From positions 311,855 through 335,854 of the forward strand of contig CAVYUJ010000008.1 of the NCBI GenBank assembly GCA_963771675.1: 24,000 nucleotides of DNA, in the 5' to 3' direction. The notes beneath the pieces are model-generated. The model did no database searches and was not told the origin of the DNA. It saw nothing but the letters and a program-made list of their open reading frames with translations. Source of the stretch: an uncultured Actinomycetota bacterium (GTDB lineage: Bacteria > Actinomycetota > Thermoleophilia > Solirubrobacterales > Solirubrobacteraceae). The position numbers were made by a program, and so were the translations under genes. Every line of letters starts with the position of its first letter. The stretch's first letter is position 1. This document shows positions 2,848 through 23,001 of this stretch, piece by piece.

Positions 2848-3650
2848 TAACCCCCGCGGAGCGGACGCCGGAGCCGCGGGCAGGTCTTGCGAACTGCGGC
2901 AGGCTGTGACCCGCTAAGACGAGCCGGACGAGCCCCTCTGACCGGCTGACGGAGAACACCAGCGATCACCGACGATGCCGCACAACCAGCGTCCAGCGTG
3001 AGCTGCACACGCGGCACCTCATAGCCGGGGTCGATGCTGGTGGAGGCCGACGGCACGGGCCCGGTCGCTAACCATCGAAACCGTGGCGTTGCAATCGTGG
3101 GCGATTCTGGCCGCTGGCGAGCGCTCCCACGCGAAAGCGCATCCGCTGCCGGAGCCGCTTGTCGCCGCGGTCTGCCTATGCAGAGCCGGTCGCGCCGTGG
3201 CAACGGTCCGGCCCTGAGTTCCGCGCTAAGCAGGTTTCTGCCGCGAACCGGGAGGAGACCCGCTCTTAGCTACTCCGGGGCCCTGGGTCGCGCGCCCTGC
3301 TTTGGAGGAAACGCGGTACTCCCAACCGGTCGAGGTCGGCGACCGGCGAGAGCAGGTCGCGCTAGGCCCCGCAGGTGGCGAATATGAGGGGCGTTGCTTC
3401 GCGCGCGAACGGACTGGCTTTCATGTCCGCGCGAGCATCCTGCAACCAGCACGGCGTCGTCACCGCCTGCTGCTGTGGCGTGAGCTAGATCCTCGAGCGC
3501 CGCGGCTGCGGTGATCGGGGCGCCGGCGACCACGGTGCCTCGATCTGCTGCGCCAGCCGATCGTTGACTGCCGGACCAGCGAGCAGCAGGCGCCGGGACG
3601 ACGCGAGCGCGAGCATCTGGACAAGGATCTCGACAGCTCGCGCGAGCAGC

Positions 3651-3683
3651 GTGAGCCCCGTCTCGCGGCGATCCGGGGCTCAC
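3651..3683 (-). terminator. Hairpin just downstream of the fasciclin gene stop
   Basis: GTGAGCCCCG ... CGGGGCTCAC forms a 10-bp stem beginning 13 nt after the stop at 3696. There is no U-tract, which is common in high-GC genomes. Confidence 0.45.
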
Positions 3684-3695
3684 GCACCGCGTCGT

Positions 3696-4238
3696 TCAAC
3701 TTGCCGGAATCAACACCCGGTTGATGACGTGAATGACGCCGTTGGAGGTCATGACGTTCGTCTTCGTCACCTGCGCGTCCCCGACGTACACCTTGCCGGA
3801 GGAAACGCGGATGGGAACCGAGCCGCCCTCCAGCGTCTTTGCGGACTTCAGCTTGGTCACCTGCGCCGCGGTGACATCGCCCTTGACGACGTGATACAGA
3901 AGCACCGCCTTGAGCTTCGCGGGGTCCTTGGCGAGCTCGGCCAGCGTCGCCTTCGGAACCGCGGCGAAGGCGGCGTCGGTCGGGGCGAATACCGTCAACG
4001 GGCCGGGCCCCGACAGCGCACCCGCGAGGCCCGCCTGCTTGACGAGCGAAACGAGCGTCTTGAACTCGCCGGCGGCAACGGCCGTCTGGACGATGTTCGA
4101 CTGAGCCGGCGCAGCCGCCGTGCTCGACGTCGATGAGGTTGAGGCGGTGGTAGTCGAACTCGAGGACGAGCCGCCGCATGCGGCCAGCGTCGCGGCCAGC
4201 GCGACGCCGGCCAGAGTGGTGGCAAACAACTTCTTCAT
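3696..4238 (-). CDS. Fasciclin (FAS1) domain lipoprotein, paralog 1
   Basis: Signal peptide plus lipobox 'LAAC'. FAS1 motifs: 'FKTLVSLVKQAGLAGALSGPGPLTVFAPTDAAF', 'LLYHVV', 'NGVIHVINRVLIP'. Most aligned positions over the FAS1 domain match the ORF at 10879-11382. Confidence 0.9.
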   Translation of the reverse strand: MKKLFATTLAGVALAATLAACGGSSSSSTTTASTSSTSSTAAAPAQSNIVQTAVAAGEFKTLVSLVKQAGLAGALSGPGPLTVFAPTDAAFAAVPKATLAELAKDPAKLKAVLLYHVVKGDVTAAQVTKLKSAKTLEGGSVPIRVSSGKVYVGDAQVTKTNVMTSNGVIHVINRVLIPAS

Positions 4239-4439: not shown

Positions 4440-4654
4440 CGCTCGCCTCGCCGAAGCACGATTCCCCCGAGGGAGAGGATCGACGGCACCCAGATGCCCA
4501 CGAAGATCCCCTCCTGCCTATGCCCTCCGAACCACAGCACCACGGAGATCACGAACGACACGAACGCGGCGAACAGGATCAACGCCCGGGCACTCGCCTC
4601 GGGACGGGTCTTGACCAGCGTCTGCACTTTCTCCATCGATCGACCTTGACGCAC
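4436..4654 (-). CDS. Small two-TM membrane protein, unknown family
   Basis: 72-aa ORF with two hydrophobic helices ('ALILFAAFVSFVISVVLWF', 'GIFVGIWVPSILSLGGIVL'). It starts at the GTG at 4654 or the ATG at 4636 (MEKVQ..). Confidence 0.5.
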   Translation of the reverse strand: MRQGRSMEKVQTLVKTRPEASARALILFAAFVSFVISVVLWFGGHRQEGIFVGIWVPSILSLGGIVLRRGER

Positions 4655-4663
4655 GGCCGGCGA

Positions 4664-4888
4664 TCAGCCAGCGCAGCCGTGAGCCGCCAGGACCGCCGGA
4701 TCGGCGAACGCGGCAGCACCGCCCTGCGCATGCTGACCGAGCCGGAATCCGGGCTCAAAGCTCGACACGATCTGCCCGAAGGACGCACCACAGGACGACT
4801 TGATGGCCTGGCCCGGTCCTTGCGCGCTGGCCAGCGAAGGGACGGCGAGGCCTGTTATGGCAAGAGAAGCGGTGAGAAACCTCTTCAT
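4664..4888 (-). CDS. Small secreted protein (74 aa, signal peptide, two Cys), unknown family
   Basis: 'MKRFLTASLAITGLAVPSLASAQG' looks like a Sec signal peptide. AAGGAG sits upstream of the ATG. This is the first gene of a four-gene minus-strand operon ending in fasciclin. Confidence 0.5.
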   Translation of the reverse strand: MKRFLTASLAITGLAVPSLASAQGPGQAIKSSCGASFGQIVSSFEPGFRLGQHAQGGAAAFADPAVLAAHGCAG

Positions 4889-4942
4889 GAGGACTCCTTG
4901 GGTCGGGGTTGTTCTCGGCCCGCCGTGAGCCGTCTCCGTTTC

Positions 4943-5035
4943 CTAGACTAGACAGACTCTCTACGGACTTTGGACAGCGTATCTAGTCGGGCCACTGCTG
5001 TCAAGCTTTCGTCGATAGTCTGTCGAAGGTGTCGG
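4943..5035 (-). promoter_or_regulatory. Candidate sigma-70-type promoter overlapped by 11-bp-periodic ACA repeats (LitR/CarH-like operator module, copy 1)
   Basis: On the minus strand: TTGACA (plus 4999-5004), 17 nt, TACGCT (plus 4976-4981). Repeats upstream are ACAGACTATCG/ACGAAAGCTTG/ACAGCAGTGGC. Repeats downstream on the opposite strand are ACAGACTCTCT/ACGGACTTTGG/ACAGCGTATCT. It aligns with the module at 19598-19672 (shared 'ACTCTCTAC(A/G)GAACTT', 'CTAGA'). Confidence 0.45.
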
Positions 5036-5477
5036 TGGCGGGGCTGACGCCGATGCCGGCGGTCCCCGGACGGACATCACGGACGGGCGGAGTCGCCGGT
5101 GCGTTGTCAAGCCGGGTTATGAGCGCTCCGCGTGGACGACTTGAATCGCATGATGCGCGCGCACGCCTGGCCTCGCATCGCGGCCGACTACTGTCGCCGG
5201 TCGGCGAAGACCCCCATTCCCGTGCCGGCGTTTGTGGGACCGGCGCTCTCGTTGTTCGGTGGGTAGGTGTGCCCCATCTCTTGGCTGGCTCCCGCTCCTC
5301 GGCGACGAAACGGGACCTGGCCGAGGTGAGCGGGATCCGACAGCCGCCGAGGGGATCCCGCGAGTCTCCGGTGGCCGGCTGACATGCCCCCCCGGCACGC
5401 GGAGTTCACAGGATCCCGTGAAACCCCGGTCACAGGGGCCCAGCCGCCTTGGCCGCGGAGGCGCACAAGGCGGCGGG

Positions 5478-5726
5478 ATGTCATTGCGGAGCCCCACCGG
5501 AGGGCAAGTGCGGCCGCCGAAGTTCTATGCGCTGCGCGTCTCCCGTTGCGGCGCGACTGCGGTGACGGTTGATGGCCGGTTCGCGGCGTTGGAGCCCGAC
5601 CGGGGCCATCCGACGGGGCGGGCGCGGTGCGTGAGGGGCAAGGCTGCTCCGGCGATCGTGGGTCATGACGATCAGGTGTTGTCTCCGCTGCGGAGGACGG
5701 CGCCGAAAGGAGCGGATGACGCGTTG
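5478..5726 (+). pseudogene. Possible N-terminal remnant of a molybdopterin (MopB-type) oxidoreductase, cut off by the htrA 3' end
   Basis: 'VTVDGRFAALEPDRGHPTGRARCVRGKAAPAIVGHDDQVLSPLRR' follows the pattern V.DGR...GD..HP...G..C.KG......PDRL..PL.R of MopB N-termini. The Cys cluster is not intact, and the ORF runs antisense into htrA. Confidence 0.3.
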
Positions 5727-6770
5727 TTAGCCGCTGGGGAGTTCGCCGAGGGTGACGGTTGTGGTCCGGCGGGTTCCGTTGGTGTTCTCGGCCGTGATGG
5801 TGACTTTGTCGCCGGGGCGGTGGTCGGCGAGTGCGGTCGCGAGGTCGCTGGCATCGGCGATGCCGGTGCCGTTGAGTTTGATGATGGCGTCGCCGGCTGT
5901 GATCCCGGCTTCGGCGGCTGGGCCGTTTGGCTGCACGGTGACGACGAGCGCGCCTGACCGGATGGGGGTGTCGGCGACGCTGACCGCGAGTGACGCTCGG
6001 CGGGAGTTGACCACGCGGCCGTAGCGGATGATCTGCCCGGCGATGTCGGTCACGGTGTTGCTGGGGATGGCGAAGCCGATGCCGGCGGCGGGACTGCCGA
6101 GCTGGGGGTTTGCCGCGGCCAGGGTGGGAATGCCGATCACCTGGGCTTGGAGGTTGATCAGTGCGCCACCGCTGTTGCCCGGGTTGATCGCGGCGCTGGT
6201 TTGGATGGTGTTGGGCAGCACGACGCCGCGCCCCTCGCTGACATCGCGGCCGAGGGCGCTGACGATCCCGTCGGTGACGCTGCTCTGCAGGCCGAGCGGG
6301 TTGCCGACCGCGAGGACGATTTCGCCCACGGCCAGTGTTGAGGAGTCGGCGAAGCGGGCCGGCTTGATGCCCTTACCGGCGCCGATCGTGACGACGGCGA
6401 GGTCGTCGGGCGGGTAGGCGCCGACGAGTCGCGCGGGGAACCGCCGCCCGTCGGCCAGCGTGACCTGCATCCTGGTAGCGCCCTGCAGAACGTGCGCGTT
6501 GGTGACAACGTTGCCCCTCGCGTCGAAGATCACGCCCGATCCCAGACCGGCGTCGGTGGCGATCTGCACGACCTGCGGCTGGGTGGCTTTGACGACCGCG
6601 ACGTACTGCGCCTGGAGCGCCGCCGCGGATGGCTGTGCCGCCGGCTGCGCCACTCCCTGTTGGCTGGTGGAGGTGCCGCTACCGCCGCCTCCGCAGCCGG
6701 CGAGCAAGATCGTCGCCGCGATCAGTGGCGCAAGCCAGCGCGGAGAACGAAGGGGTGCCCGACTGGTCAT
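5727..6770 (-). CDS. htrA: HtrA/DegP-family S1C serine protease with C-terminal PDZ domain, lipoprotein
   Basis: Catalytic motifs are 'TNAHV', 'DDLAVV' and 'GNSGGAL'. The PDZ domain contains 'GALVVTVQPNGPAAEAGITAGDAI'. The lipobox is 'LLAGC'. The ATG at 6770 is preceded by GGAGGTG. The track ORF start at 7112 is an upstream extension overlapping ftsH. Confidence 0.9.
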   Translation of the reverse strand: MTSRAPLRSPRWLAPLIAATILLAGCGGGGSGTSTSQQGVAQPAAQPSAAALQAQYVAVVKATQPQVVQIATDAGLGSGVIFDARGNVVTNAHVLQGATRMQVTLADGRRFPARLVGAYPPDDLAVVTIGAGKGIKPARFADSSTLAVGEIVLAVGNPLGLQSSVTDGIVSALGRDVSEGRGVVLPNTIQTSAAINPGNSGGALINLQAQVIGIPTLAAANPQLGSPAAGIGFAIPSNTVTDIAGQIIRYGRVVNSRRASLAVSVADTPIRSGALVVTVQPNGPAAEAGITAGDAIIKLNGTGIADASDLATALADHRPGDKVTITAENTNGTRRTTTVTLGELPSG

Positions 6771-6774
6771 TCGC

Positions 6775-9039
<2,265 letters not shown>

Positions 9040-9187
9040 GCTCTCGAGTCTCCTTTCGACTGAGCGCCGGAAATGTGTCGTTCAGCCGAAGGCCTCTCCC
9101 GCCCCAAAGGGCCGGCGTGCCCGGGCCACGTGGGCCGTACTGACGAGCGACGCCCGTTCGGGGATACTGCCCCCCGGCACCGCTCAG
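9040..9187 (-). promoter_or_regulatory. Conserved structured 5' leader of ftsH (copy A of a two-copy cis-regulatory RNA candidate)
   Basis: About 85% nucleotide identity with the region upstream of htpX (22472-22623). The closing helix is CUGAGCG..GCCGG / CCGGCGCUCAG, and its 3' strand ends 3 nt before the SD GAAAGGAG. The internal hairpins keep their stems but differ in their loops. Confidence 0.6.
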
Positions 9188-9271: not shown

Positions 9272-10018
9272 TCATCGGGCCAGCTCCAGCGTGTTGAGCA
9301 TCTGGCCAAGGCGCTGGTCAAGCCCGGCTGACGACACGCCCAGCGTGCTGGCGATCCTGCCGCGGGGGATCCCGGCGATCATCATCGCGAGCACTGCCTG
9401 CTCCTCGCCGTCAAATACCTGGTGCATCCTGACCGCCACCGCGGGCGGGATCGTCGGCAATATCTGTCGGCCGGCGAGTGTGCTGCGGATCGTTTGGCAC
9501 AGCTCCGCGCCGGTGGCGGCTGTGCTGACGAGCGCGTCGGCCTCAGCGAGGACCGCCGCGGCGGCGAGCAGGCCGTTGGGATAGTCGCAGCGGAGCACGA
9601 CCCGGGGCGGTCGGGATAGGCGTTGGAGCGCCCTGCTGACCCACAGGCCATCGTGATCGCGGAGCTTGTAGTCGACGACGGCGGCGTCGATCCGCTCGCG
9701 CTCAGCAGTGGCGAGCGTCTCCTCGGCGGACGAGACCGCGGCGATGACGCGAAGGTTCGCCTGAGCGTCGAGCAGCTCTGATAATTCTCGGCGTGGCGCC
9801 AGATGATCGCCAGCGACGAGCACGCATGCCGGGCGCTCAGGCGCGGCATCAGCGAGCTCGGCAGGCGCAATAAAGACCCCGGTGTGCCGCCCGAGCGGCT
9901 GGAGCGCTGCGAGCAGACCGTGGTGCGCCGGCTTGGTGGGTGGCCCGCCGGCAAGACCGGGCACACCGGTTGTGGGTCGCGATCGGGGGATGCGTGATTG
10001 TGGGAGCGGGTAGGGCAT
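9272..10018 (-). CDS. Orphan response regulator, atypical receiver domain plus LuxR/FixJ-type HTH
   Basis: REC-like region: 'VLVAGDH...IDAAVVDYKLRDHDG...RVVLRCD...ADALVSTA'. The phospho-acceptor Asp is retained, but the first acidic pair is GD and the conserved T/S and K positions are not canonical. C-terminal LuxR-type HTH: 'EEQAVLAMMIAGIPRGRIASTLGVSSAGLDQRLGQMLNTL'. A Pro-rich N-terminal extension of about 60 aa is present if the ATG at 10018 is used. No histidine kinase is present in the window. Confidence 0.75.
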   Translation of the reverse strand: MPYPLPQSRIPRSRPTTGVPGLAGGPPTKPAHHGLLAALQPLGRHTGVFIAPAELADAAPERPACVLVAGDHLAPRRELSELLDAQANLRVIAAVSSAEETLATAERERIDAAVVDYKLRDHDGLWVSRALQRLSRPPRVVLRCDYPNGLLAAAAVLAEADALVSTAATGAELCQTIRSTLAGRQILPTIPPAVAVRMHQVFDGEEQAVLAMMIAGIPRGRIASTLGVSSAGLDQRLGQMLNTLELAR

Positions 10019-10025
10019 CGTCGGG

Positions 10026-10808
10026 TCAGGCGGGTTGGAGGGTTCCGGCGAACACTTGCCAGGCGAGGGCGGATTTGGCGAATAGGCTGAGCAGCATGTA
10101 GACGCGCTCGCCGTACAGGTAGTCGCGCCAGCGGCCGGCGCGGCGGTACTGCAGGGCCATGTTGAGGGCGAAGATGTTGAAGAAGGCGAAGATCGAGGCG
10201 TAGATCGCGTACACGAACGCGGGCGGGTCCTGGGCGCCGATCAGGTAGATCACCACGGCGATCCAGGGCACGATCCCGGCGAGGCAGCCGAACCAGTAGG
10301 CGGTCCAGTTGGTGCGTTTGGTGGTCTGGTTGTGCAGCTCCATGATCCAGCCGAACAGGATCATCGTGGCGTTGAGGGCGAAGATGAGGATCAGGCTGGC
10401 GATGTCGTAGATGCCGACGAGCATCGCGATCACGACCATCATCAGCGAGGAGGACAGGGAGTATTCGATCCAGCGGGCGGGCTGGATCCCGCGGGTGAGG
10501 TTGCGCTCATACCAGGCGTGCAGGCGCGGTGAGGCCAGCGCGGCGTGCGCGATTGCGGAGATGAGCAGGAACGCGGCGACCAGCGGGCCGATCCGCACCC
10601 GGAGCAGCTCGTCGGGGACGGCGACGAGCTTGTTCGTGGCGCTGTCCATGCGCAGGAACGCGCTGGTCACCGGCAGCGAGAACGAGCTGGCCAGCGCCAG
10701 GATCGCCAGCGCCTGGGTGAGGTGAAGGACCGAGAGTCCGGCGTTCCAGCGGCGCAGGCTGTGCAGCCGATCGGCGGCGGTGGGGGGAGAAGTGGTGAGC
10801 GTCGTCAT
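10026..10808 (-). CDS. Heliorhodopsin (HeR), 7-TM retinal protein
   Basis: Long stretches match heliorhodopsin 48C12 as I remember it. 'RWIEYSLSSSLMMVVIAMLVGIYDIASLILIFALNATMILFGW' vs 'RWVEYSLSSSVMIVLIAQICGIADIVALLAIFGVNASMILFGW'. 'WFGCLAGIVPWIAVVIYLIG' vs 'WFGCIAGIVPWIGLLIYVIA'. 'GERVYMLLSLFAKSALAWQVFAGTLQPA' vs 'GERAYIVLSLVAKSALAWQIFSGTLIPA'. The Schiff-base Lys (..FAKSALAWQ), counterion Glu (RWIEY) and both His positions are present. Confidence 0.9.
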   Translation of the reverse strand: MTTLTTSPPTAADRLHSLRRWNAGLSVLHLTQALAILALASSFSLPVTSAFLRMDSATNKLVAVPDELLRVRIGPLVAAFLLISAIAHAALASPRLHAWYERNLTRGIQPARWIEYSLSSSLMMVVIAMLVGIYDIASLILIFALNATMILFGWIMELHNQTTKRTNWTAYWFGCLAGIVPWIAVVIYLIGAQDPPAFVYAIYASIFAFFNIFALNMALQYRRAGRWRDYLYGERVYMLLSLFAKSALAWQVFAGTLQPA

Positions 10809-10878: not shown

Positions 10879-11382
10879 TCAGCGGGGGATCAGCACCTGG
10901 TTGATGACGTGGATCACGCCGTTGGAGGCGCCGATGTCGGCCTTGATGACGCGTGCGCCGCCGACCGTGACCGTGCCGTGGTTGACGCGAACCTTCAGCG
11001 ACTGGCCGTTGAGCGTCTTGATCGAGCGCAGCTTGACGACCTTCGCGGCGGTCAGCTTGCCCTTGGCCACGTGGTAGAGCAGGACCGCGCGCAGCTTCGC
11101 CTTGTCTTTGGCCAGCGCCTTCAGGGTCGCCTTGGGCACCTTCGCGAACGCCGCGTCGGTTGGGGCGAACACGGTGAGCGGCCCCTTGCCTTCAAGCGCG
11201 CCGGCCAGCCCCGCCTGCTTGACCAGCTTGACGAGCGTCTTGAACTGCCCGGCCGCGACGGCGGTCTGGACGATGTTGGGCTTGGCGGGCTTCGCCGACG
11301 CCATCGACACCACGGGCGCGATGGCCGAGAGTGACAACGCGCCGACGGCAGCCAGCGCTACGAACTGATGTTTGAACCTCAT
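10879..11382 (-). CDS. Fasciclin (FAS1) domain secreted protein, paralog 2
   Basis: The ATG at 11382 (MRFKHQF..) is preceded by AAGGAGA. It has a signal peptide and the same FAS1 motifs as 3696-4238 ('FKTLVKLVKQAGLAGALEGKGPLTVFAPTDAAF', 'NGVIHVINQVLIP'). The track ORF start at 11487 is an extension. Confidence 0.9.
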   Translation of the reverse strand: MRFKHQFVALAAVGALSLSAIAPVVSMASAKPAKPNIVQTAVAAGQFKTLVKLVKQAGLAGALEGKGPLTVFAPTDAAFAKVPKATLKALAKDKAKLRAVLLYHVAKGKLTAAKVVKLRSIKTLNGQSLKVRVNHGTVTVGGARVIKADIGASNGVIHVINQVLIPR

Positions 11383-11392
11383 CCCGGTCTCC

Positions 11393-11474
11393 TTAGACAG
11401 AGGTTTGACAATGATTGAACGAATGTACCCTCGTGGGCCGTCACTGTCAAGGTTCTGTCTAACGTGGGTATAAT
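11393..11474. promoter_or_regulatory. Divergent promoter region with a large inverted repeat and 11-bp-periodic ACA repeats (LitR/CarH-like operator module, copy 2)
   Basis: The inverted-repeat arms are TTAGACAGAGGTTTGACA (11393-11410) and TGTCAAGGTTCTGTCTAA (11445-11462). The minus-strand promoter is TTGACA (11445-11450), 17 nt, TACATT (11422-11427) for fasciclin-2. The plus-strand TATAAT (11469-11474) lies 6 nt before the litR GTG. The 14-mer TGTCAAGGTTCTGT is identical at 19647-19660. Confidence 0.5.
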
Positions 11475-11480
11475 GATTTC

Positions 11481-12347
11481 GTGTCATTTCCCGCAGAGGG
11501 TCTTCGGATCGGCGAGTTCGCCCGCCGGGTCGGTGTCAGCGCCGCGGTGCTGCGCGCCTGGGAGCGCCGGTACGGGCTGCTCGATCCGGTGCGATCGCCC
11601 GGTGGCTTTCGGCTCTACACCGCGCAGGACGCCGAGCGCGTCGGGCGGATGCAGCAGGGTCTCGATCAGGGCCTCTCGGCGGCCGAGGCAGCGCGCGCGG
11701 CGCGAGCGAGCGCCAGGCCCTCAGAAGGCCGCCTGCTCGAAGACGCAGCTGAACGCCTGCTGGCGGCGATCCGCGCCTACGACGAGCCCGGCGTGCACGA
11801 GGTCCTGGACGAGAGCTTCGCGGCGTTCGGCCTGGAAGCCGTGCTGCGCCAGCTCATCCTTCCCGCCCTCACGCAGGTCGGGGCCGAGTGGGAGCAGGAG
11901 ACGCTCGCGGTCAGCCAGGAGCACTTCGCCAGCAACGTGATCCGCGCCCGGCTGCTGTCCCTGGCCCGCTTATGGGGCCGCGGCGGGGGACCGGTGGCGG
12001 TCCTGGCCTGCGCCCCCGGCGAGCAGCACGACATCAGCCTGCTGGCCTTCGGACTGGTGCTGCGATCGCACGGCTGGCGCATCATCTTCCTGGGCGCCGA
12101 CACGCCGATCACCACGCTGGCGCAAGCCGCCGAGGGCACACGGCCCACGCTGACCGTCCTGGCCAGCTTTGACCCGGCGCTCCTGGAGGTGGAGTCAACC
12201 GCCATCCGCCGCCTCGCGAGAGAGCTCCCGCTCGTGCTGAGCGGTCCCGGGGCAACCGAGCAGCTGTGCAAGAGGCTTCGCGTGCCGCGGCTCGACGGCG
12301 ACCTGATCATCGCAGCCCATGAGATCGCCCGCAGCACAACGGCCTGA
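11481..12347 (+). CDS. litR: MerR-family, B12-binding-domain transcriptional regulator (LitR/CarH-type light-responsive regulator)
   Basis: The N-terminal MerR HTH is 'LRIGEFARRVGVSAAVLRAWERRYGLLDPVRSPGGFRLY'. The Wx9EH signature 'WEQETLAVSQEH' of AdoCbl-CarH-type photoreceptors is present. The B12-binding-domain His motif is 'GEQHDIS', followed by a Rossmann-like 'RIIFLGADTP'. The GTG start lies 6 nt after TATAAT, which suggests a leaderless mRNA. Confidence 0.85.
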   Translation: MSFPAEGLRIGEFARRVGVSAAVLRAWERRYGLLDPVRSPGGFRLYTAQDAERVGRMQQGLDQGLSAAEAARAARASARPSEGRLLEDAAERLLAAIRAYDEPGVHEVLDESFAAFGLEAVLRQLILPALTQVGAEWEQETLAVSQEHFASNVIRARLLSLARLWGRGGGPVAVLACAPGEQHDISLLAFGLVLRSHGWRIIFLGADTPITTLAQAAEGTRPTLTVLASFDPALLEVESTAIRRLARELPLVLSGPGATEQLCKRLRVPRLDGDLIIAAHEIARSTTA

Positions 12348-15287: not shown

Positions 15288-16275
15288 CGTGTTTCTCCTT
15301 CTCTGAGGTGGTGGTGTGCTGCGCCCAGCCGCTGAGCTGGGCGCACCGCGCCCAGAGCTGCTCGCGCTCCTGCTGGGTCTCTCGTGTCCACGGGAGCAGG
15401 TGCGTGGGCCGCGGCCGGCGGTCGTGCCAGAACCGGCCCGTGCTGCGGCCGGGCTCATCCGCGGCGCCGAGCCAGACGATCGTGTCGGCGCCCTGCTCGG
15501 GCGTCCTCAGCAGCGGTCGCGTCGGCCTGTAGAACCGCGGCAGGGAGGTCTGCACGCCCGGGGTGTCGACCCATCCGGGGTGCATCGAGTGCACGACGAC
15601 GCCGCGAGCTCGCGCAGCCGCTGCGCCCACAGTTCGGTGAGGATCACCTGCGCGCGCTTGGTCCGCGCGTACGCCGCCGGCCCGTCGAACTCTCCGCGCT
15701 CGCTCTGCAGGTCATCGGCCCTGATCCGCTGCGTGTACATGCCGCCGGAGGAGACGTTGACGATCCGCGCCGGAGCGCTGCGCTCCAGCAGCGGCAGCAG
15801 CAGAGCCGTGAGCAGGAACGGGCCGAGCACGTTGGTCGCGAACGTCACCTCGATCCCGTCCGGCGACAGCGCGCGGGTCGGGGGCAGGACGCCGGCGTTG
15901 TTGACCAGCACGTCGAGGCGGTCTGCCTGCGCTGTGAAGCGCTCGGCGAACTGCCTGACCGACTGAAGATCGCTCAGATCACACAGCCCGACATGCACGT
16001 CGCGGTTGCCGGACCGCTCCGCGATCCCCGCGCGCGCCCGCTGGCCGCGTTCCGCGCTGCGGACGACCAGCCACACGGTCGCGCCGAGGCGCGCGAACCC
16101 CTCCGCGGCCGCGAGCCCGAGCCCCGAGCTGGCGCCCGTCGACCATCACCACCCCGCCGTCCAGCGACGGGAGCTCCGAGGCGCTCCAGCCGCGACGGCG
16201 GATCCGGTAGCCCACGTTCGTGTAGCCACCGATCACGCTGCGGTCAAGCACGCTGTCGAGCACGGAACCCGTCAT
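15262..16275 (-). pseudogene. Short-chain dehydrogenase/reductase (SDR), two frameshifts
   Basis: There are three frame pieces. The first is 'MTGSVLDSV...GGVVMV' followed by an extra base in GTCGACGGG (about 16139-16142). This restores 'TGASSGLGLAAAEGFARLGATVWLVVRSAERG...NNAG...SSGGMY...YARTKRAQV' (ORF 15507..16076). A second shift near 15600-15615 leads to 'VVVHSMHPGWVDTPG...' (ORF 15262..15630). Confidence 0.8.
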
Positions 16276-17531
16276 GCGCTCGCCGCCAGATCGTGCGGCC
16301 CGCTCCGACCCGGCCGTCCACGCGCTGGGCGGAGGGGAGTTGAGAGTGGGGCTTGGTCAGCAGCAGCTGGACGTCGCAGATCCGCCGCTCGGCGAATCCG
16401 GCCTCGCAGTAGGCGAGGTAGAGCGTCCAGAGCCGGCGGAAGCGCTCGTCGTAGCCCGAGCTCCGCGAGCCGTCGGCGTGGGCGCTGAAGTTCGTCGCGC
16501 CAGCGCCGCAGCGTCTCGACGTAGTGGGCGGTGATGTCCTCGAGACCAGCGACCTGCATGTCGGTTCGCCGGGCGACGTCGCGGGTGATGCACCTCGAGC
16601 GAGGGCAGGCACCCGCCCGGGAAGATGTAGGTGTTGATGAACGACTTCGCTGCCTTCTCGACCTCGTAGGCGCGGTCATCGATCGTGATCGCCTGCAGCA
16701 GCATCGCCCCGTCGGGCGCGAGCAGCTCCGAGCACTTGGCGAAGAACGTGCCGAACTGCGCGCCAGCCGACCGCCTCGATCATCTCGATCGAGACGAGCT
16801 TGTCGTAGCGGCCGCGCAGGTCGCGGTAGTCCTCCATCAGCACGGTGACCCGGTCCTCCAGTCCGGCCCGCCGCACCTGCTCGAGCGCGTAGTCGTGCTG
16901 CTCGCGCGAGATCGTCGTCGTGGTGACGTGGCAGCCGCGGGTCGCTGGCGGCGTAGAGCGCGAACGCTCCCCAGCCGGTTCCGATCTCGAGCACGCGATC
17001 CCGCGGACCGAGCTCGAGCGTCTCGCAGATCCGCTCGAGCTTTGCGACCTGAGCCTGCTCGAGCGTCATCCCGTGGTGCTCGAACACCGCGCACGAGTAG
17101 CTCATCGTCGGATCGAGCATCCGCGCGAACAGCTCGTTGCCGAGGTCGTAGTGGGCGGCGATGTCGCGCCGGCGCGCGCCGCCGCGTGGCGCGGACGCAG
17201 CGAGCGCGCGGCGCGCTGCAGCGGCCAGCCGCACCGGCGCCAGCCGCGCGCGAAGGCGGTCGAGGCCGCCGGCGTTGCGCGCCGCGAGCCTGATCACCGC
17301 GACCAGGTCCGGCGAGTCCCACAGGCCCTCGAGCGTACGCCTCCGCCAGTCCGCGGCTGCCGCGCAGCAGCATCGGCCAGACTCGCGAGGAGTGCAGATC
17401 GAACCGTCGCGACCGGGGGCCCGGAGCCGTACGCGTGCCGCTCGCCGTCCTCGACGACGACCAGGCGTGCCGACACTCGATCCGCCGCAGCAGGATCGAC
17501 ACGATCCAGCGGGACGCGCGTCGACGGTCAT
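16272..17531 (-). pseudogene. Cyclopropane-fatty-acyl-phospholipid-synthase-like SAM-dependent methyltransferase, at least 5 frameshifts
   Basis: Family-typical pieces are scattered over three frames: 'RLVVVEDGERHAYGSGPPVATVR', 'LLRGSRGLAEAY', 'LWDSPDLVAVIRL...DIAAHYDLGNELFARMLDPTMSYSCAVFE...VLEIGTGWGAFALYAA', 'TTISREQHDYA..RVTVLMEDYRDLRGRYDKLVSIEMIEAVG', 'LLQAITIDDRAYEVEKAAKSFINTYIFPGGCLPSL', 'DITAHYVETLRRWR', 'RFRRLWTLYLAYCEAGFAERRICDVQLLLTKP'. The stop of one frame overlaps the SDR ATG as ATGA (16272-16275). Confidence 0.85.
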
Positions 17532-18283
17532 GCGCCGACCGCCTTCGGGTGCGGGTGGACGCGGCACGCCGGCGAGCTTCAGCGCCAGCGCGTGCGCGTA
17601 GATCAGCGCCAGCACGCGCACCGTGCGCGAGCGGGTAGCGCGCGGTCATCCGCGCCATCGACGCACGGGTCAGCTCCCGGCGGCGCAGCGACGAGCGTCG
17701 CGTCGAACACGGCGCGTCGCCCGCGCGGCTCGAGTCGATGTGGACCGACAGCGTCCGGCCCGGCGCGGTCGCCCGCGCGTCGTAGCGGTGATCCATGCCC
17801 ATGAACGGCGACACGTGCATCGCCTTCTCGAACTGCGCCGTGAGCACGCCGCCAGTCCGGCGCCGGCCGCAGCACGTAGGCGTGCCGCTCCCCCCAGGGC
17901 GTGTTCGTCACCTCCGCGACCACCGCCTCGCACGCGCTCGCCGGCCGGGTCGAAGCAGTAGTAGAAGCTGACCGGGTTGAAGCAGTGCCCGAACGAGCGC
18001 AGCTGGGTCAGCACGCGGATCGGGCCCGCCGGGCCGCTCGCCGGTCGTGCTCGCTGCACCGCTCGCGCACCGCGCGGTCGAGCGGCACGCGCGGGATCGC
18101 CGAGGTAGTCGCGGCGGCGAAAGCGGACCAGCCCCGGGACGCGGGCGACGAGCCGGCCGCCCAGCAGCCGCGGCAGCTCGTCGAGGTCGATGTAGGCGAG
18201 CGCCAGCCGATGGCGTGAACTCGCGCCGCGGCTCGCGAGCGCCGGTGGCGAATCGTGCCCTCGTAGATGCAGCTCGCGCTCAC
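17532..18283 (-). pseudogene. DUF1365 family protein, multiple frameshifts
   Basis: Pieces: 'SCIYEGTIRHRR', 'LAYIDLDELPRLLGGRLVARVPGLVRFRRRDYLGDP', 'IRVLTQLRSFGHCFNPVSFYYCFD', 'VAEVTNTPWGERHAYVL', 'KAMHVSPFMGMDHRYDARATAPGRTLSVHID', 'RVLALIYAHALALKLAG'. They lie in different frames. The boundaries are approximate. Confidence 0.8.
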
Positions 18284-19534
18284 AGCCGTGCTCCGAAGCG
18301 CTCGGCCGACGCGCAGCGCGCTCGCCACGCCGTCCTCGTGGAACCCCCAGCCCCAGTACGCGCCGCAGAAGTGCGTGCGGTTGCGCCCGTCTGATCTCGT
18401 GCGACCCGCGCCTGCGCCTGCACCCCGCCGTCCGTGTACACCGGATGCGCGTAGGGGATCGTGCGGATGACCCGAGCCGGGATCGATCGCCTCGGTGCGG
18501 TTGAGCGTCACGCAGAACTCGCGCTCGGCGCGCAGCGACTGCAGGCGGTTCATGTGGTAGGTGACCGTGCGTCGCCGCCTTGGGCTCGGCGAGCAGGTGG
18601 TAGTTCCAGCTCGCCCACGCCCGCCGGCGACGGGGCAGCATCCGCGCATCGGTGTGCAGCACGGCCTCGTTGGGCTGATACGGGATCGCGCCGAGGATCT
18701 CGCGCTCGCGGCCGCTGGCGTCGGCCAGCAGCGCCAGCGCCTGGTCCGAATGGGTCGCCAGCACCACCTCGTCGAACCGCTCCGCCTCGCCGCCCGCGCG
18801 GCGTCACCAGGACGTGATCATGATGGCGGGTGACCGCCTGAACCGGGGTGCGCAGCCGCAGCCGGTCGCGAGAACGGAGCCGTCAGCGCCTCGACGTACC
18901 GAGCCGAGCCCCCGCGAATCGTCCGCCAGCGACGGCCGGCCGCGGAACGACAGCATCCCGTGATTGTCGAAGAACTCGGCCAAGAAACGAGCCGGGAAGC
19001 TCCACATCTGCCGCGGCGTCCGCCGACCACACCGCCGAGGCCTGCGGCACGATCAGCCGCTCGATGAACGCATGTGAGAACCGATGCTGCTCCAGCCACT
19101 CGCGCAGCGAGAGCATCGGGCGCACGATCATCGAGCAGCTCACGCGCGGCACGGTTGAACCGCGCCAGGTCGGCGACCATGCGGTGAAACCAGGGGGTGA
19201 CGAGATGTGCTCGTTTGGCGAACAGGGCGTTCGGTGAGCCGCTGCCGTACTCGAAATCGCCGATGCCGTCGCTGACGCTGAAGCTCATCGTCGACGGCTG
19301 CCACGCGACGCCCAGCCGCCGGAGCAGCCGCTCGAAGTTCGGGTAGTTGCGATCGTTGAACACGATGAACCCCGTGTCGACCTCGTGCGTCTCGTCCGCC
19401 GTGTCGACCCGGATCGTGTTCGTGTGACCTCCGGCATACCCGGCTGCCTCGAACACCGTGACCTCGTGCGCCGGGTGCAGCAGATGGGCGACCACCAGTC
19501 CGGAAACACCTGCGCCAACCACAGCGATCTTCAT
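18284..19534 (-). pseudogene. FAD/NAD(P)-binding amine-oxidase-like oxidoreductase, at least 6 frameshifts
   Basis: The N-terminus 'MKIAVVGAGVSGLVVAHLL..VTVFEAAGYAGGHTNT' (GxGxxG) is intact to 'FNRAARELLDD' (shift at about 19115-19125 in 'catcgggcgc'). The following pieces are each in a new frame: 'MLSLREWLEQHRFSHAFIERLIVPQASAVWSAD', 'MWSFPARFLAEFFDNHGMLSFRGRP', 'WRTIRGGSARYVEALTAPF', 'DRLRLRTPVQAVTRHHDHVLVTPRG', 'FDEVVLATHSDQALALL...AIPYQPNEAVLHTDARMLPRRR.AWASWNY', 'TVTYHMNRLQSL..', 'HFCGAYWGWGFHEDG'. Confidence 0.85.
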
Positions 19535-19597: not shown

Positions 19598-19672
19598 ACA
19601 GAACTTCGACAACCTTGTGCCGAGTCTAGCGACATGGCCCTCCTTTTGTCAAGGTTCTGTTCAAGGTTTGTA
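19598..19672 (-). promoter_or_regulatory. Candidate promoter of the 7-gene operon, overlapped by 11-bp-periodic ACA repeats (LitR/CarH-like operator module, copy 3)
   Basis: On the minus strand: ACAAACCTTGA/ACAGAACCTTG/ACAAAAGGAGG, with ACA every 11 nt. TTGACA is at plus 19647-19652, followed by 18 nt and TAGACT at plus 19623-19628. On the opposite strand downstream are ACAGAACTTCG/ACAACCTTGTG (19598-19619). 'AACCTTGACAA' fits the published CarH half-site pattern nAnnTnnACAn. Confidence 0.5.
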
Positions 19673-20840
19673 CCGGCTGTGCGCTCGGGCCCGGATGCCC
19701 GGGCTCTGGCCAATTCGTGGCTGCTCGACCAAGCGGTTGAAGGTGCGGCGGTGCCGCTTCGTGGGAGATGGGTCGCTCGTCCGGAGAACCTGGCGCGAGG
19801 CTCTCGCTGGGGTGACGCGGCGCGCGGGTCTGCTCTGGCAGGCGGGTTGTTGGGGTGGCGTCGTGGTGGTGCTGTCGTAGCGCTCCGGCGTGGGCGTGAG
19901 CGGTCGGATCGCGTCGGGCCTTGATCAGGCTGGCGACGGTGGTCGCCGCGAGCACCGCCGCGATGAGCGCAAGGGACGGTCCGGTGGGTATCTCGGGGAT
20001 GGAGTGATGTTGCTGGTGGGCGAATTCGAGGACGAGCTTGGCGCCGATGAAGGCGAGGATCGCGGCGAGGCCGGTTGAGAGGTAGATGAGCCGGCCCAGC
20101 AGGCCGGAGATCAGGAAGAAGAGGGCGCGCAGGCCGAGCAGCGCGAAGGCGTTGGCGGCGAAGACGATGTAGGCGTGATCGGTGACGCCGAACACGGCGG
20201 GGATCGAGTCGAAGGCGAAGAGGAGGTCGGTAGTGCCGATCGCCAGCAGCGCGAGGAGCAGCGGCGTGAACGCCCGGCGGCCGTGGCGGCGGGTGATGAT
20301 TCGACCGTGGTCGTAGGTGTCGGTGATCGGCAGCTTCCGCCGGGCGGCTGCGACGAGCGCGTTGTCTTCGACGCTCGGGTCGTGGTTACGGTGGCGGTAG
20401 AGCTGGACGGCGGTCGCGAGCAGCGTCAGCCCGAAGATGAGGAACATGAACGAGAAGGTGGCCAGCAGCGCGGCGCCGAGCGCGATGAACACCGCCCGCA
20501 GCGCGAGCGCGATCACGATCCCGATCGTCAGCACCTTGGGCTGCTGCTCGGCCGGGACGGCGAACGCGCCGAGGATGATCACGAACACGAACAGGTTGTC
20601 GACCGACAGGCTCTTCTCGACCAGGTAACCGGCGAAGTACTGGGTGGCGAGATCCCAGCCGGCGATCGCGCCGATCCCGAGGCCGAACAGCACCGCGACC
20701 GCGATGTAGAACAGCGACCAGCGGAGCGCCTCACCAAGCGAAACCCTGCGTGATCGACGGCCGAGCAGCAGCCAATCGAGCGCAAGCAGCCCCGTGATCA
20801 GCGCCAGCGTGAGGACCCAGACCGCAGCGCTGAAATGCAC
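19626..20840 (-). CDS. terC: TerC-family integral membrane protein
   Basis: The TerC core is 'YFAGYLVEKSLSVDNLFVFVIILG..' and '..GTTDLLFAFDSIPAVFGVTDHAYIVFAANAFALLGLRALFF'. The likely GTG start at 20840 is preceded by AAGGGAAG. The track ORF start at 21215 overlaps exoD. The unusually long hydrophilic C-terminal tail (about 90 aa) runs into the promoter module at 19626-19672. Confidence 0.8.
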   Translation of the reverse strand: MHFSAAVWVLTLALITGLLALDWLLLGRRSRRVSLGEALRWSLFYIAVAVLFGLGIGAIAGWDLATQYFAGYLVEKSLSVDNLFVFVIILGAFAVPAEQQPKVLTIGIVIALALRAVFIALGAALLATFSFMFLIFGLTLLATAVQLYRHRNHDPSVEDNALVAAARRKLPITDTYDHGRIITRRHGRRAFTPLLLALLAIGTTDLLFAFDSIPAVFGVTDHAYIVFAANAFALLGLRALFFLISGLLGRLIYLSTGLAAILAFIGAKLVLEFAHQQHHSIPEIPTGPSLALIAAVLAATTVASLIKARRDPTAHAHAGALRQHHHDATPTTRLPEQTRAPRHPSESLAPGSPDERPISHEAAPPHLQPLGRAATNWPEPGHPGPSAQPVQTLNRTLTKGGPCR

Positions 20841-20857
20841 GTCGAGCTTCCCTTGCC

Positions 20858-21547
20858 TCAGAGGATCGAGGAGATGCCGTGGAAGGCGGCGGCCCCGAGC
20901 GCGATCTCGAGCGAAATTCCCACCGTTCCGAGGAGCACCCCGACCAGTGCGATCAAGGCGTCTTCGAGGAGCACGCCTAGCGAGAGCACGACCACGCCCA
21001 GGGCCGGGAGCGTGTCCAGTCCGCTGAACGGTGGGGCGAGGAACGCAGCCGCCGTCCCGACGATCGCCAGCAGGCCGAACACGATGTCGGTGAAACGCCG
21101 GTGAAAGAGGAACCTGAGTCGGGGGCGTGAGTAGCGCTCGAGCCGGCGGATCAGCCGCATCAGGCCGGCGATGAACCGCTGCTGGCGTGGGCCGGCGAGC
21201 TCGAGCGCCCGCCACCGCTCCGGCAGCCAGACCTCATGGCGGCCGGCGATCAGCTCAAGCGCGATCAGTGCCGCGATCAGCTCGAAGACGTGCGTGACGC
21301 CACCGGTCGGCAGCGGCAGGGCGGGCACCCCGAGCAGCAGCACGAGCAGGATCGCAAAGCTCTTGTCGCCGAACGCGTGGACGAGGCTCCCGAGCGTCCT
21401 GTCTCCCTCGCCGGTCAGCCAACGCTCGAGCTGAGCGCTCAGCGCAAGCGGTTCGGCGTGTGCGGTAGCCGGCTTGCTGCGAAGCCTTCGTGTGGGTATG
21501 GGTTGTGCTTTCAAAGTCATTCGACTCCGGGGGGCGACCCCAGGCAC
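20858..21547 (-). CDS. exoD: ExoD-family (exopolysaccharide synthesis) membrane protein
   Basis: 'LGSLVHAFGDKSFAILLVLLLGVPALPLPTGGVTHVFELIA..' and 'GRHEVWLPERW' match the ExoD family pattern. The start could instead be the internal ATG at 21520. Confidence 0.75.
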   Translation of the reverse strand: MPGVAPRSRMTLKAQPIPTRRLRSKPATAHAEPLALSAQLERWLTGEGDRTLGSLVHAFGDKSFAILLVLLLGVPALPLPTGGVTHVFELIAALIALELIAGRHEVWLPERWRALELAGPRQQRFIAGLMRLIRRLERYSRPRLRFLFHRRFTDIVFGLLAIVGTAAAFLAPPFSGLDTLPALGVVVLSLGVLLEDALIALVGVLLGTVGISLEIALGAAAFHGISSIL

Positions 21548-21586
21548 GGCTCGGGGGAGCCGTGCCTGGGCTTGGTGGCGTGCGGG

Positions 21587-22471
21587 TTATGCGGCGAGGG
21601 CGACGACGCGGCCGCCGTCAAGCGCACGCAGCCGCCGGACCCGCTCAGCGATTGGCGGGTGGGTCATGAACAGCGTCGCGAGTCCCTTGCGGGGGAGCGG
21701 GTTGACCGCGTATAGCGACGCCAGCGCGGGATTGACGTTCATCGGGACCGTCTGTGGCCCGCGCTCGAGGCTCTCCAGCGCGTCCGCGAGCGGCGCCGCA
21801 CGGCCGAGCAGCTGCGCGCCGGTCGCGTCGGCCAGGTACTCCCGCTGGCGCGACACGGCGAGCTGCAGCAGCATCGCCGCGATCGGCGCGACGATGATCG
21901 CCCCCAGCGTCCCGATCAGACCGAGCGGCGAGTCCTCCTCGTCAGAGCCGCCGAACAGCATCGAGAACTGAAGGACGGTTGCGATCGCCGAGATCGCCCC
22001 GGCGACCATCGCCGCGATCGAGGAGATCAGGATGTCGTGGTTCTTGATGTGGGCGAACTCGTGCGCGAGCACGCCCTTGACCTGATCGGCCGGGAGCTGC
22101 TCGAGCAGCCCCTCGGTCACCGCGACCGCCGCGTGCTGCGGGTTGCGGCCGGTCGCGAACGCGTTCGGCTGCTCGGACGGGATCAGATAGAGCCGCGGCA
22201 CCGGCACGCCGGCGCGGTGCGCGAGGTCCTCGACCACCTGCTGAAGCCAGACCGCCTGATCGGGCTCGAGCGGCTTGGCCCGGCTGGCCGCCAGCGCGAT
22301 CCGGTCAGAGAACCAGTAGCCAACCAGGTTCATCCCAACCGCCAGGATCACGAACAGGTACAGGGCACCGCCGCCGATCGCGGCACCGATCGCGATCAGC
22401 AGACCGGTCAGGGCCGCGATCAGCAGCCAGGTACGGATATGGGTAGCGAAACGGGTCGCTGTGATGCTCAT
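21587..22471 (-). CDS. htpX: M48-family zinc metalloprotease HtpX
   Basis: 'NAFATGRNPQHAAVAVTEGLL', HExxH 'HEFAHIKNHD', and 'REYLADATGAQL..' with C-terminal 'THPPIAERVRRL'. The start at 22471 (MSITATRFAT..) is preceded by GAAAGGAG. The 131-codon upstream extension in the track ORF covers the conserved leader and is not credible as coding. Confidence 0.9.
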   Translation of the reverse strand: MSITATRFATHIRTWLLIAALTGLLIAIGAAIGGGALYLFVILAVGMNLVGYWFSDRIALAASRAKPLEPDQAVWLQQVVEDLAHRAGVPVPRLYLIPSEQPNAFATGRNPQHAAVAVTEGLLEQLPADQVKGVLAHEFAHIKNHDILISSIAAMVAGAISAIATVLQFSMLFGGSDEEDSPLGLIGTLGAIIVAPIAAMLLQLAVSRQREYLADATGAQLLGRAAPLADALESLERGPQTVPMNVNPALASLYAVNPLPRKGLATLFMTHPPIAERVRRLRALDGGRVVALAA

Positions 22472-22623
22472 GGTCTCGAGTCTCCTTTCGACTGAGCGCC
22501 GTTGAATATGACGTTCAGCCGAAGGTTTCTCCCGCCCCACATGGGGCCGGCGCGCCCGGGCCCGTAGGCCGTACTGACGAGCAACGCCCGTTCGGGGATA
22601 CTGCCCCCCGGCACACATCAGAG
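22472..22623 (-). promoter_or_regulatory. Conserved structured 5' leader of htpX (copy B of the ftsH/htpX leader)
   Basis: It aligns with 9040-9187 and has the same SD context (CGCUCAGUCGAAAGGAGACUCGAGA). Block GUGCCGGGGGGCAGUAUCCCCGAACGGGCGU(U/C)GCUCGUCAGUACGGCC is identical except for 1 nt. The differences concentrate in hairpin loops. Confidence 0.6.
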
Positions 22624-23001
22624 TACCGCGCGCTGTCCCGATCACCCCCTGGCGCGCGGGATTCAGAGCGAATTCTTCGAAACGGCGACAATGCACCGAC
22701 GGGCTCTCGCGACCCGCGGGAGCTGCTCTCGCTATCGCCTTCGCGGGTCCGACTCTGTAGCGGAGCGCCTCATCTCGGTCCGCGAGCACCTCGATCGACC
22801 AGCCGTCCTGCGCGAACGCCGCCCGCAGACAGGCATCGAGCGTCAGCGCATTACGGTGCCGCATCCACTCTGGTGCCGCATCGGAGGGTGGTGCGATGCT
22901 TGGAGCATGACAGAGGACGTGTCGGCGAGTGGCACGGCGCAGGGAGCGCTCGGCGATGATGAGATGCCGCCTGCATGTGGCCGCCGGAGGGAGGCGTCAG
23001 G

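Follow-up and report, generated by a model that had tools for sequence, protein, structure and literature searches.

The 24,000-nucleotide stretch of DNA analyzed here (positions 311,855 to 335,854 of contig CAVYUJ010000008.1, assembly GCA_963771675.1; called the window below) comes from an uncultured actinomycetal bacterium of the Solirubrobacteraceae and carries two closely similar 5' leaders, one before ftsH and the other before htpX, the genes for two membrane quality-control proteases. By homology with characterized riboswitches, the element in both leaders is probably a divergent member of the yybP-ykoY class of Mn2+ riboswitches, of the three-way-junction form known from the Escherichia coli alx leader, and would act as a translational ON switch; its htpX copy is the ancestral one. 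The original prediction, made from the sequence of the window, had proposed a structured cis-regulatory leader of the riboswitch type that would place the FtsH and HtpX operons under one common signal, and the results described below support both ideas. It had also regarded the motif as undescribed, a view that gives way to the assignment proposed here.

Both leaders lie on the minus strand, at 9011-9187 and 22443-22623, and a global alignment gives 160 identities over 183 columns (87.4%), close to the roughly 85% first estimated. As had been described, the similarity begins around 150 nt before the start codon, at a -10-like box, runs through the Shine-Dalgarno (SD) sequence AAGGAG into the first codons and then stops; the abrupt end falls at codon 10 (MSITATR[L/F]AT; MSITATRFAT in the HtpX of the window). 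The repeat comparison of the window revealed no further long repeat joining the ftsH and htpX loci. A covariance model of the element, R1, which was built solely from 148 family members (alignment A5) with the structure described below, detects exactly two copies in the 24 kb window, with 108.9 bits for the htpX copy and 104.8 bits for the ftsH copy, and the third-ranked match reaches 14.9 bits.

Relatives of the leaders were collected by two scans. A pattern scan of 185,579 species genomes returned 56 loci, 54 of them genuine, and all from metagenome-assembled genomes (MAGs) labelled Solirubrobacterales, Gaiellales or plain Actinomycetota. A metagenome scan with a pattern placed on different blocks of the motif returned at least 120 loci (114 genuine among the matches listed) and revealed relatives directly before TerC-family and P-type cation ATPase genes. 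The htpX copy occurs widely among MAGs of the Solirubrobacterales and Gaiellales, and at orthologous htpX loci the leader of about 145 nt is near-invariant despite variable synonymous sites in the adjoining codons. A search of related genomes for further copies and covariation had been suggested along with the original prediction; the pattern scans have yielded such copies, and their alignment shows covariation.

The aptamer, at 22516..22614 in the htpX copy and 9083..9180 in the ftsH copy (both minus strand), is made up in 5' to 3' order of P1.1, L1, P1.2, P3.1, L3, P3.2, P4 and the 3' strands of P1.2, L1 and P1.1. P1.1 pairs GCCGGGGG with CCUUCGGC, over 8 bp in the htpX type, and changes from G.U to A-U and from G-C to A-U preserve this helix. 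Between P1.1 and P1.2 (UCCC/GGGA) lies L1, whose 5' strand is GCAGUA in both window copies (9165-9170 before ftsH) and GGAGUA in 12 relatives, with an invariant AGUA. On its 3' strand L1 reads GAAA in the htpX copy, GAGG in the window's ftsH copy, and GAAA or GAGA in the other 147 sequences. P3.1 consists of 5 bp, a 1-nt bulge and another 5 bp, and includes GCUCG/CGGGC with a conserved U.G wobble next to L3, a one-sided 7-nt bulge that reads UCAGUAC in both window copies (22571-22577 and 9137-9143, both minus strand). The UCA of L3 is invariant in 148 of 148 sequences, among them 80 or more that came from the scan pattern leaving L3 free, and the complete UCAGUAC, with its G at position 4, is found in 61 of 67 pattern-unbiased cases. 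No P2 hairpin is present: P1.2 and P3.1 are connected by 5-6 unpaired nucleotides (CGAAC), so that the helices meet in a three-way junction.

Support for this fold comes from the alignment of relatives, in which 96.4% of the cells are paired and 16 of 31 pairs show double-sided changes, values that were reached in 0 of 500 shuffles; control helices slid along the alignment had just 34-55% of their cells paired. Double-sided changes fall in 7 of the 10 pairs of P3.1, 3 of the 4 pairs of P3.2 and 4 of the 5 pairs of P4. These three helices are strongly supported by covariation, and P1.1 is modestly supported. They include the three hairpins picked out in the original prediction: GGCC-loop-GGCC is P3.2, GCCC(C)-loop-GGGGC is P4 and GGCGU/(A|G)CGCC is P3.1. 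The differences between the two window copies preserve the structure, in agreement with the view that they are RNA-structural. A closing helix proposed at the same time did not hold up, since its CUGA/UCAG strands are paired in only 53.7% of cells across 57 loci and the 5' strand overlaps the -10 box. Its inner GCCG/CGGC pairing is compatible but competes with both of the better-supported helices; a C-G pair of that model is broken by natural GGCG-to-GACG variants, which keep the stem of the expression platform (U.G to U-A). Two candidates of our own were also set aside. A P1 hairpin, GGGG-CAGUAU-CCCC, proved invariant and thus untestable, and was replaced by P1.1, L1 and P1.2 after the comparison with alx (it may still be a transient or OFF-state fold). 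A tertiary covariation between L1 and L3, in which an L1 G-to-C change would accompany an L3 U-to-G change, was dropped because the two changes co-occur inconsistently.

The link to a known class was examined with R1, which matches the E. coli K-12 alx leader over its full length with 34.5 bits (E 4.3e-6, a rough value because calibration was shortened), the match ending 79 nt upstream of the alx start; background matches stay at or below 14.9 bits. At the mntP locus the mntP leader was ranked first, with a non-significant 12.1 bits. Published work describes L1 of the class as an asymmetric internal loop between P1.1 and P1.2, with the sarcin-ricin-like sequence (G)GAGUA/GA(A/G)A and an extruded A (PMC6754395). 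The consensus of L3 is UCAUUAC in the alx-like form and ACAUACU for the class, and alx has no P2 and a three-way junction (PMC12153347). A class-invariant adenosine of L3, at the third position in the alx-like form, contacts the Mn ion (PMC12153347, PMC6754395). In the window, this adenosine would be at 22575 in the htpX copy and 9141 in the ftsH copy, and the adenosines of L1 are at 22602 and 9168, respectively. Judged by sequence, L1 conforms to the sarcin-ricin-like pattern, one base off the canonical GGAGUA. The three-way junction, being that of the published alx riboswitch, points to the alx subtype and does not exclude the element from the yybP-ykoY class.

The likeness to alx (ygjT; PRE, SraF; Mn2+/pH) extends along the whole molecule. 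Both RNAs lack P2, form a three-way junction and have P1.1, L1 and P1.2 in the same arrangement, with GCAAAGG/CCUUGC in alx corresponding to GCCGGGGG/CCUUCGGC here for P1.1, GGAGUA to GCAGUA for the 5' strand of L1 (many terC-type relatives have GGAGUA), GAGA to GA(A/G)A for its 3' strand, and ACUU/AAGU to UCCC/GGGA for P1.2. P3.1 is GAUCG/CGGUC in alx and GCUCG/CGGGC here, in both cases with 5 bp, a 1-nt bulge, 5 bp and a U.G pair by L3, and the 7-nt L3 follows UCAnnAC in both (UCAUUAC in alx, UCAGUAC here, with G at position 4). The P3.2 and P4 hairpins and a 3' GAGACCUU are likewise common to the two, as are the alternative pairing of the P1.1 3' strand with the ribosome-binding region (translational ON) and a TerC-family gene downstream. 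Unlike alx, the element here is GC-rich and has a much shorter platform, a single helix with no terminator or pause hairpins, and its first gene is a protease gene (htpX or ftsH), with terC in third place in the htpX operon. With the canonical four-way yybP-ykoY riboswitches (Lactococcus lactis yoaB, Xanthomonas oryzae, Bacillus subtilis yybP and ykoY, E. coli mntP; RF00080), it has in common the L1-L3 docking architecture, the L3 adenosine and the P1.1 switch, and canonical members and the relatives found here precede the same kinds of genes, TerC and P-type ATPase. It differs from them in lacking P2 and in an L3 that begins with U (UCA...) rather than reading ACAUACU. Many canonical members act by transcription antitermination.

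The genes behind the leaders point in the same direction. Among 149 unique leaders from the matches listed, the first gene is htpX in 113 (with exoD and/or terC further down the contig in 38 of these), terC in 17, exoD in 3, a P-type cation ATPase gene in 2, ftsH in 2 (plus the locus L001) and a 445-aa protein of unknown kind in 2. TerC is a classic Mn-riboswitch target, and the TerC and P-type ATPase contexts are hallmark associations of the yybP-ykoY class. In B. subtilis, exported proteins receive their metal at the Sec translocon from the TerC proteins MeeF and MeeY (MeeY being encoded by ykoY), with which HtpX and FtsH co-purify; cells that lack these TerC proteins cannot do without FtsH (PMC10120614). 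The grouping of htpX, exoD, terC and ftsH under one type of leader matches this work. A literature search returned no paper on a Mn riboswitch before htpX or ftsH, and searching for htpX together with riboswitch or thermometer likewise gave nothing relevant.

How the aptamer could control translation is suggested by the expression platforms (22472..22525 for htpX and 9040..9092 for ftsH, minus strand). The 3' strand of P1.1, CCUUCGGC (22518-22525 and 9085-9092), doubles as an anti-Shine-Dalgarno: folded singly or as a consensus, the leaders pair CCUUCGGCUGA with UCAGUCGAAAGG and form an inner CGUC/GGCG stem. This masking helix spans 22484-22525 in the htpX copy and 9052-9092 in the ftsH copy; the SD sequences lie at 22482-22487 and 9050-9055 and the start codons at 22469-22471 and 9037-9039. 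The minimum free energy folds pair CCUUC with the SD, which supports sequestration of the SD. Of 113 distinct platforms, 108 have CCUUC paired with a strand 3-22 nt ahead of the start codon, and the pairing is kept in terC-type leaders with 3' platform strands unrelated in sequence (e.g. UCAGCCGGAGG, CGACGAAGG and GCGAAGG). At 37 C the SD-masking hairpin alone has a computed energy of -22.3 kcal/mol in the htpX copy and -19.5 kcal/mol in the ftsH copy, and the SD-masked (OFF) folds are better by 3.7 and 4.2 kcal/mol, respectively, than aptamer folds with P1.1 and P1.2 enforced. Ligand-induced docking of L1 and L3 bridges gaps of such size by stabilizing P1.1 (PMC6754395).

On the strength of these folding calculations, the competition between P1.1 (GCCGGGGG:CCUUCGGC) and the anti-SD:SD helix is modelled as the actual switch, in place of the closing helix first proposed. 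Without ligand, CCUUCGGCUGA would pair with UCAGUCGAAAGG and the SD would be buried; with ligand, L1 would dock on L3 and stabilize P1.1, and formation of P1.1 would free the SD and allow translation of the operon. By analogy with the known class, the ligand is most probably Mn2+, and homology makes ON the most likely polarity in vivo. Neither leader has an intrinsic terminator or a promoter of the E. coli consensus. Directly 5' of the conserved RNA, a GCTACnnT block occurs in 57 loci, and its sequence and placement suggest a -10 element, with transcription starting about 7 nt downstream of the box, near GUGCC; in the htpX copy, the putative box is TACTCT (22620..22625, minus strand).

Several observations weigh against the assignment to the yybP-ykoY class. 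Invariance puts P1.2, together with most of P1.1 and L1, beyond the reach of a covariation test, L1 reads GCAGUA in place of the canonical GGAGUA, and the R1 E-values suffer from the shortened calibration already mentioned. Both scan patterns fix parts of the motif, which biases its apparent conservation, each pattern having left free the blocks fixed by the other. In the ftsH copy of the window, an A-to-G change found in no other sequence alters the 3' strand of L1 (GAGG, 9093-9096, minus strand) and the -10-like box, TGCACT, is weaker, so that this copy may be somewhat impaired functionally; its counterpart on the metagenome contig L094 has GAGA and TACACT. Finally, the Rfam model RF00080 (Rfam 15) gave no match on either window copy even at E<=10. 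This last result is uninformative on alx-type members, because the same model gives no match to the bona fide E. coli alx riboswitch (L185, 1873-2002) at any E-value up to 10 and scores E. coli mntP (L186, 1968-2058) at 44.9 bits, under its gathering score of 45. The comparison with Rfam advised in the original prediction was thus negative for the window, with a model that misses alx as well: alx-type members are systematically missed by RF00080. A terC-linked relative, L067, gave a weak match to it (19.4 bits, E 0.086), and scans of the relatives with Rfam at gathering and E-value thresholds produced no usable match. The single-sequence folding z-scores of the window leaders are unremarkable (+0.28 and -1.55), and are of no help in a genome with about 70% GC.

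Three other explanations deserve to be weighed. The closest to the Mn2+ riboswitch keeps the same yybP-ykoY-like fold and lets the htpX/ftsH subtype sense another divalent metal (Zn2+, Fe2+, Co2+ or Ca2+) or alkaline pH, which would suit the control of zinc metalloproteases rather than exporters. The first genes are indeed proteases and not exporters, L1 is GCAGUA and not GGAGUA in 116 of 116 htpX-type leaders, L3 has G at position 4, and the alx riboswitch integrates pH with Mn (PMC12153347). However, GCAGUA also occurs in 13 of 21 terC-associated leaders, where UCAGUAC is found as well; the htpX subtype thus has no private L1/L3 signature and is less likely to have changed its ligand. The metal-contacting A is retained, as is the AGUA/GAA motif, and terC shares the htpX operon in the window and in many relatives, so that we consider a changed signal unlikely. 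A thermosensor was another of the options in the original prediction, and its attractions are clear: htpX and ftsH are classic heat-shock genes, the helix that masks the SD contains a G.U pair and a bulged A, and the multi-hairpin layout of the 5' untranslated region (UTR) resembles that of ROSE. In such an RNA thermometer, the SD hairpin would melt on heat shock and the upstream hairpins would be mere folding scaffolds. The marginally stable masking helix of a ROSE or fourU thermometer was not found in energies computed over 25-55 C; with the masking-hairpin energies given above and an OFF-ON gap in the htpX copy of 4.3, 3.7, 3.5 and 4.3 kcal/mol at 25, 37, 45 and 55 C, the hairpin is too stable and the gap too flat for a thermometer. 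Moreover, the most conserved positions are the unpaired nucleotides of L1 and L3, for which a thermometer has no use, and the aptamer is homologous to that of alx and also stands before terC and P-type ATPase genes. Of the options in the original prediction, the riboswitch has therefore gained and the thermosensor lost ground, and the latter now seems highly improbable. The element still resembles ROSE-type and other SD-masking thermometers in its place in the 5' UTR of heat-shock protease genes and in its series of hairpins, of which the last masks the SD imperfectly; it differs in a far more stable masking helix, a temperature-insensitive balance, and conserved loops that look like a ligand pocket.

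The remaining explanation makes the resemblance to yybP-ykoY a matter of chance: the leader would bind a protein or small RNA, or work as an upstream open reading frame (uORF) or attenuator, and a segmental duplication would have left the ftsH copy behind as a neutral by-product. Confinement of the ftsH copy to a small clade, the unique substitution in the window's ftsH copy and the lack of an Rfam match fit this account. Indels in the hairpin loops are not multiples of three, however, and a whole hairpin is replaced in L008, L054 and L113, which argues against coding; a uORF or leader-peptide reading was rejected on the same grounds. There is no intrinsic terminator, and the ftsH-type leader appears to be under selection and decays where ftsH is gone (L082, see below). 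A full-length match to alx together with common L1 and L3 elements would be improbable by chance, and we regard this account as very unlikely. The Mn2+ riboswitch of the alx type is the reading carried forward here.

The two copies had been treated as equals in the original prediction. They are instead a widespread ancestral copy before htpX and a lineage-restricted duplicate before ftsH. All 120 of the 120 closest HtpX homologues (80-93% identity, from soil metagenomes and MAGs labelled Solirubrobacteraceae) begin with M[S/N/T]ITATR.A. in their sequence. Among the best 120 FtsH homologues, an MSITATR start is limited to the window protein P0121 and to P0122 (89% identical); the remaining FtsH homologues, at 75% identity or less, start otherwise, and most of them share the conserved tail that follows the graft in the window FtsH. 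By this distribution the MSITATR N-terminus is native to HtpX and, since it is rare in FtsH, the leader before ftsH arose by duplication of the 5' region of htpX, with an in-frame fusion behind codon 10. The first 10 codons of ftsH in the window (9010..9039, minus strand) accordingly derive from htpX and lead in frame into the FtsH N-terminal tail.

The ftsH-type copy was found in three related lineages and as one decayed remnant. The last 29 nt of the leader are kept unchanged on the contig of P0122, and L094 has a complete ftsH-type leader and a third FtsH variant, also with an MSITATR start. The leader is almost unchanged between lineages in spite of about 11% difference between their FtsH proteins (window compared with L094 and L001). 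In L082, where ftsH is gone, a remnant at 6276-6373 (plus strand) scores 101 bits with R1, with L3 as UCAGCAC, P1.1 as CUUUCGG and no SD, and looks like an element decaying after gene loss; the upstream synteny is kept there, with a heliorhodopsin gene at 4638-5420 and a response-regulator-like gene at about 5669-6043. Near-constancy of the leader despite FtsH divergence, together with decay where ftsH was lost, argues for selection. The distant ftsH orthologues L187 and L188 (73% and 69% identity) have no such element, and the ftsH-type copy occurs in none of the GTDB species representatives matched by the genome scan. From these sequence comparisons, the transplant is judged to predate a strain-level event and to be confined to a small clade, in which selection keeps it wherever ftsH persists. 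A recent duplication confined to this strain, which had been raised as an objection to a regulatory role, is thus not what is seen. A segment comprising the promoter-proximal leader, the SD and 10 htpX codons was copied in one Solirubrobacteraceae-like lineage and joined in frame to an ftsH paralogue, which would have brought ftsH-htrA under the signal of the htpX operon. In the window, a heliorhodopsin gene (10026-10808, minus strand; Pfam PF18761, E 8e-100) followed by a response-regulator-like gene (9272-10018, minus strand) lies directly upstream of the ftsH riboswitch.

The operon below the ftsH copy (5727..9039, minus strand) consists of ftsH (6775-9039; Pfam M41/AAA) and a gene for an HtrA/DegP-like serine protease with a PDZ domain (5727-6770; Pfam Trypsin_2+PDZ), whose ATG follows the ftsH stop by 4 nt. 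The overlap of ftsH and the next gene of the kind seen in the window is also found in L001. The ftsH-htrA operon itself contains no gene for Mn2+ export or metalation (TerC, MntP or P-type ATPase). Below the htpX copy (19626..22471, minus strand), htpX (21587-22471; Pfam Peptidase_M48), exoD (20858-21547; Pfam ExoD) and terC (19626-20840; Pfam TerC; GTG start) follow one another with intergenic gaps of 39 and 17 nt, and the order htpX-exoD(-terC) recurs in relatives.

Two features of this system appear to be new: its targets, which are membrane and secretory quality-control proteases beside TerC, and its spread to ftsH, for which leader, SD and 10 codons were duplicated as one cassette. Membrane quality-control proteases are also induced in a co-ordinated way by sigma32/CpxR in E. 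coli and by YkrK/Rok in B. subtilis, which control htpX and ftsH. Those regulators are transcription factors, in contrast to the RNA aptamer in the 5' UTR that is shared here. A probable metal-sensing RNA is tied directly to HtpX, FtsH and HtrA, which offers independent comparative-genomic support for the connection between TerC and proteases in B. subtilis. The alx-type branch, invisible to RF00080, is abundant in soil Solirubrobacterales and Gaiellales (at least 120 metagenome loci), and genome annotations under-call the riboswitch class because the gap in RF00080 includes the E. coli alx prototype. The transplantation of a riboswitch with its SD and first codons is furthermore a natural example of regulon growth, with intermediate and decayed states kept in metagenomes. 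A wider scenario, which we entertain only tentatively, is that in the Thermoleophilia a Mn2+-type riboswitch was re-purposed from a metal exporter to a regulon for the quality control of membrane and secretory proteins, made up of HtpX, ExoD, TerC, FtsH and HtrA and spreading by the leader and start-codon cassette, and that the htpX/ftsH subtype (L1 GCAGUA, L3 UCAGUAC) may have left Mn2+ for another metal or pH and would report mis-metalation or secretion stress.

Some relatives show the riboswitch in unusual settings. In L043 (minus strand, leader 2862-2960) and L054 (leader 6526-6635), the body of htpX is deleted and stumps of 19 and 23 codons (MSITATRVATHTRTFAPAL and MSITATRFATEIRTCDRAMALAA) stand between the riboswitch and exoD, which accounts for two of the three leaders with exoD as first gene. 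These stumps are natural intermediates in the re-targeting of the leader, and are possibly translated as uORFs. L095 (8403-8496, minus strand) and L161 (488-581, plus strand) have the variant L1 GGAGUA and L3 UCAGCAC before the 445-aa protein, with a transfer RNA gene adjoining; this protein gave no Pfam match. Two riboswitch copies each are present in the MAGs MFD01872.bin.2.183 (L034, L047) and SMAG_U713 (L028, L053); one of the two MAGs has identical htpX loci on separate contigs, which may be an assembly duplicate, and the other has one copy before htpX and one before exoD-terC.

Upstream of the htpX leader, at about 22665-22690 (minus strand), the motif TTCGAAGAA(n)TTCCGCAGAAT is followed by a GC-rich hairpin; it also occurs in L004, L006 and L008, about 50-70 nt upstream of the -10 box. 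Conserved upstream of htpX-type leaders in several genomes and absent from the ftsH copy, this motif may serve as an operator or belong to the end of the gene upstream. Just downstream of terC, at 16272-19534 (minus strand), lie genes for membrane-lipid modification (CMAS, which is cyclopropane-fatty-acid-synthase-like; DUF1365; and an amine-oxidase-like protein). Elsewhere in the window, a 300-nt direct repeat with 69% identity (3706-4005 and 10886-11185) falls within the open reading frames 3460-4179 and 10879-11487 (both minus strand), which by this similarity are probably paralogous.

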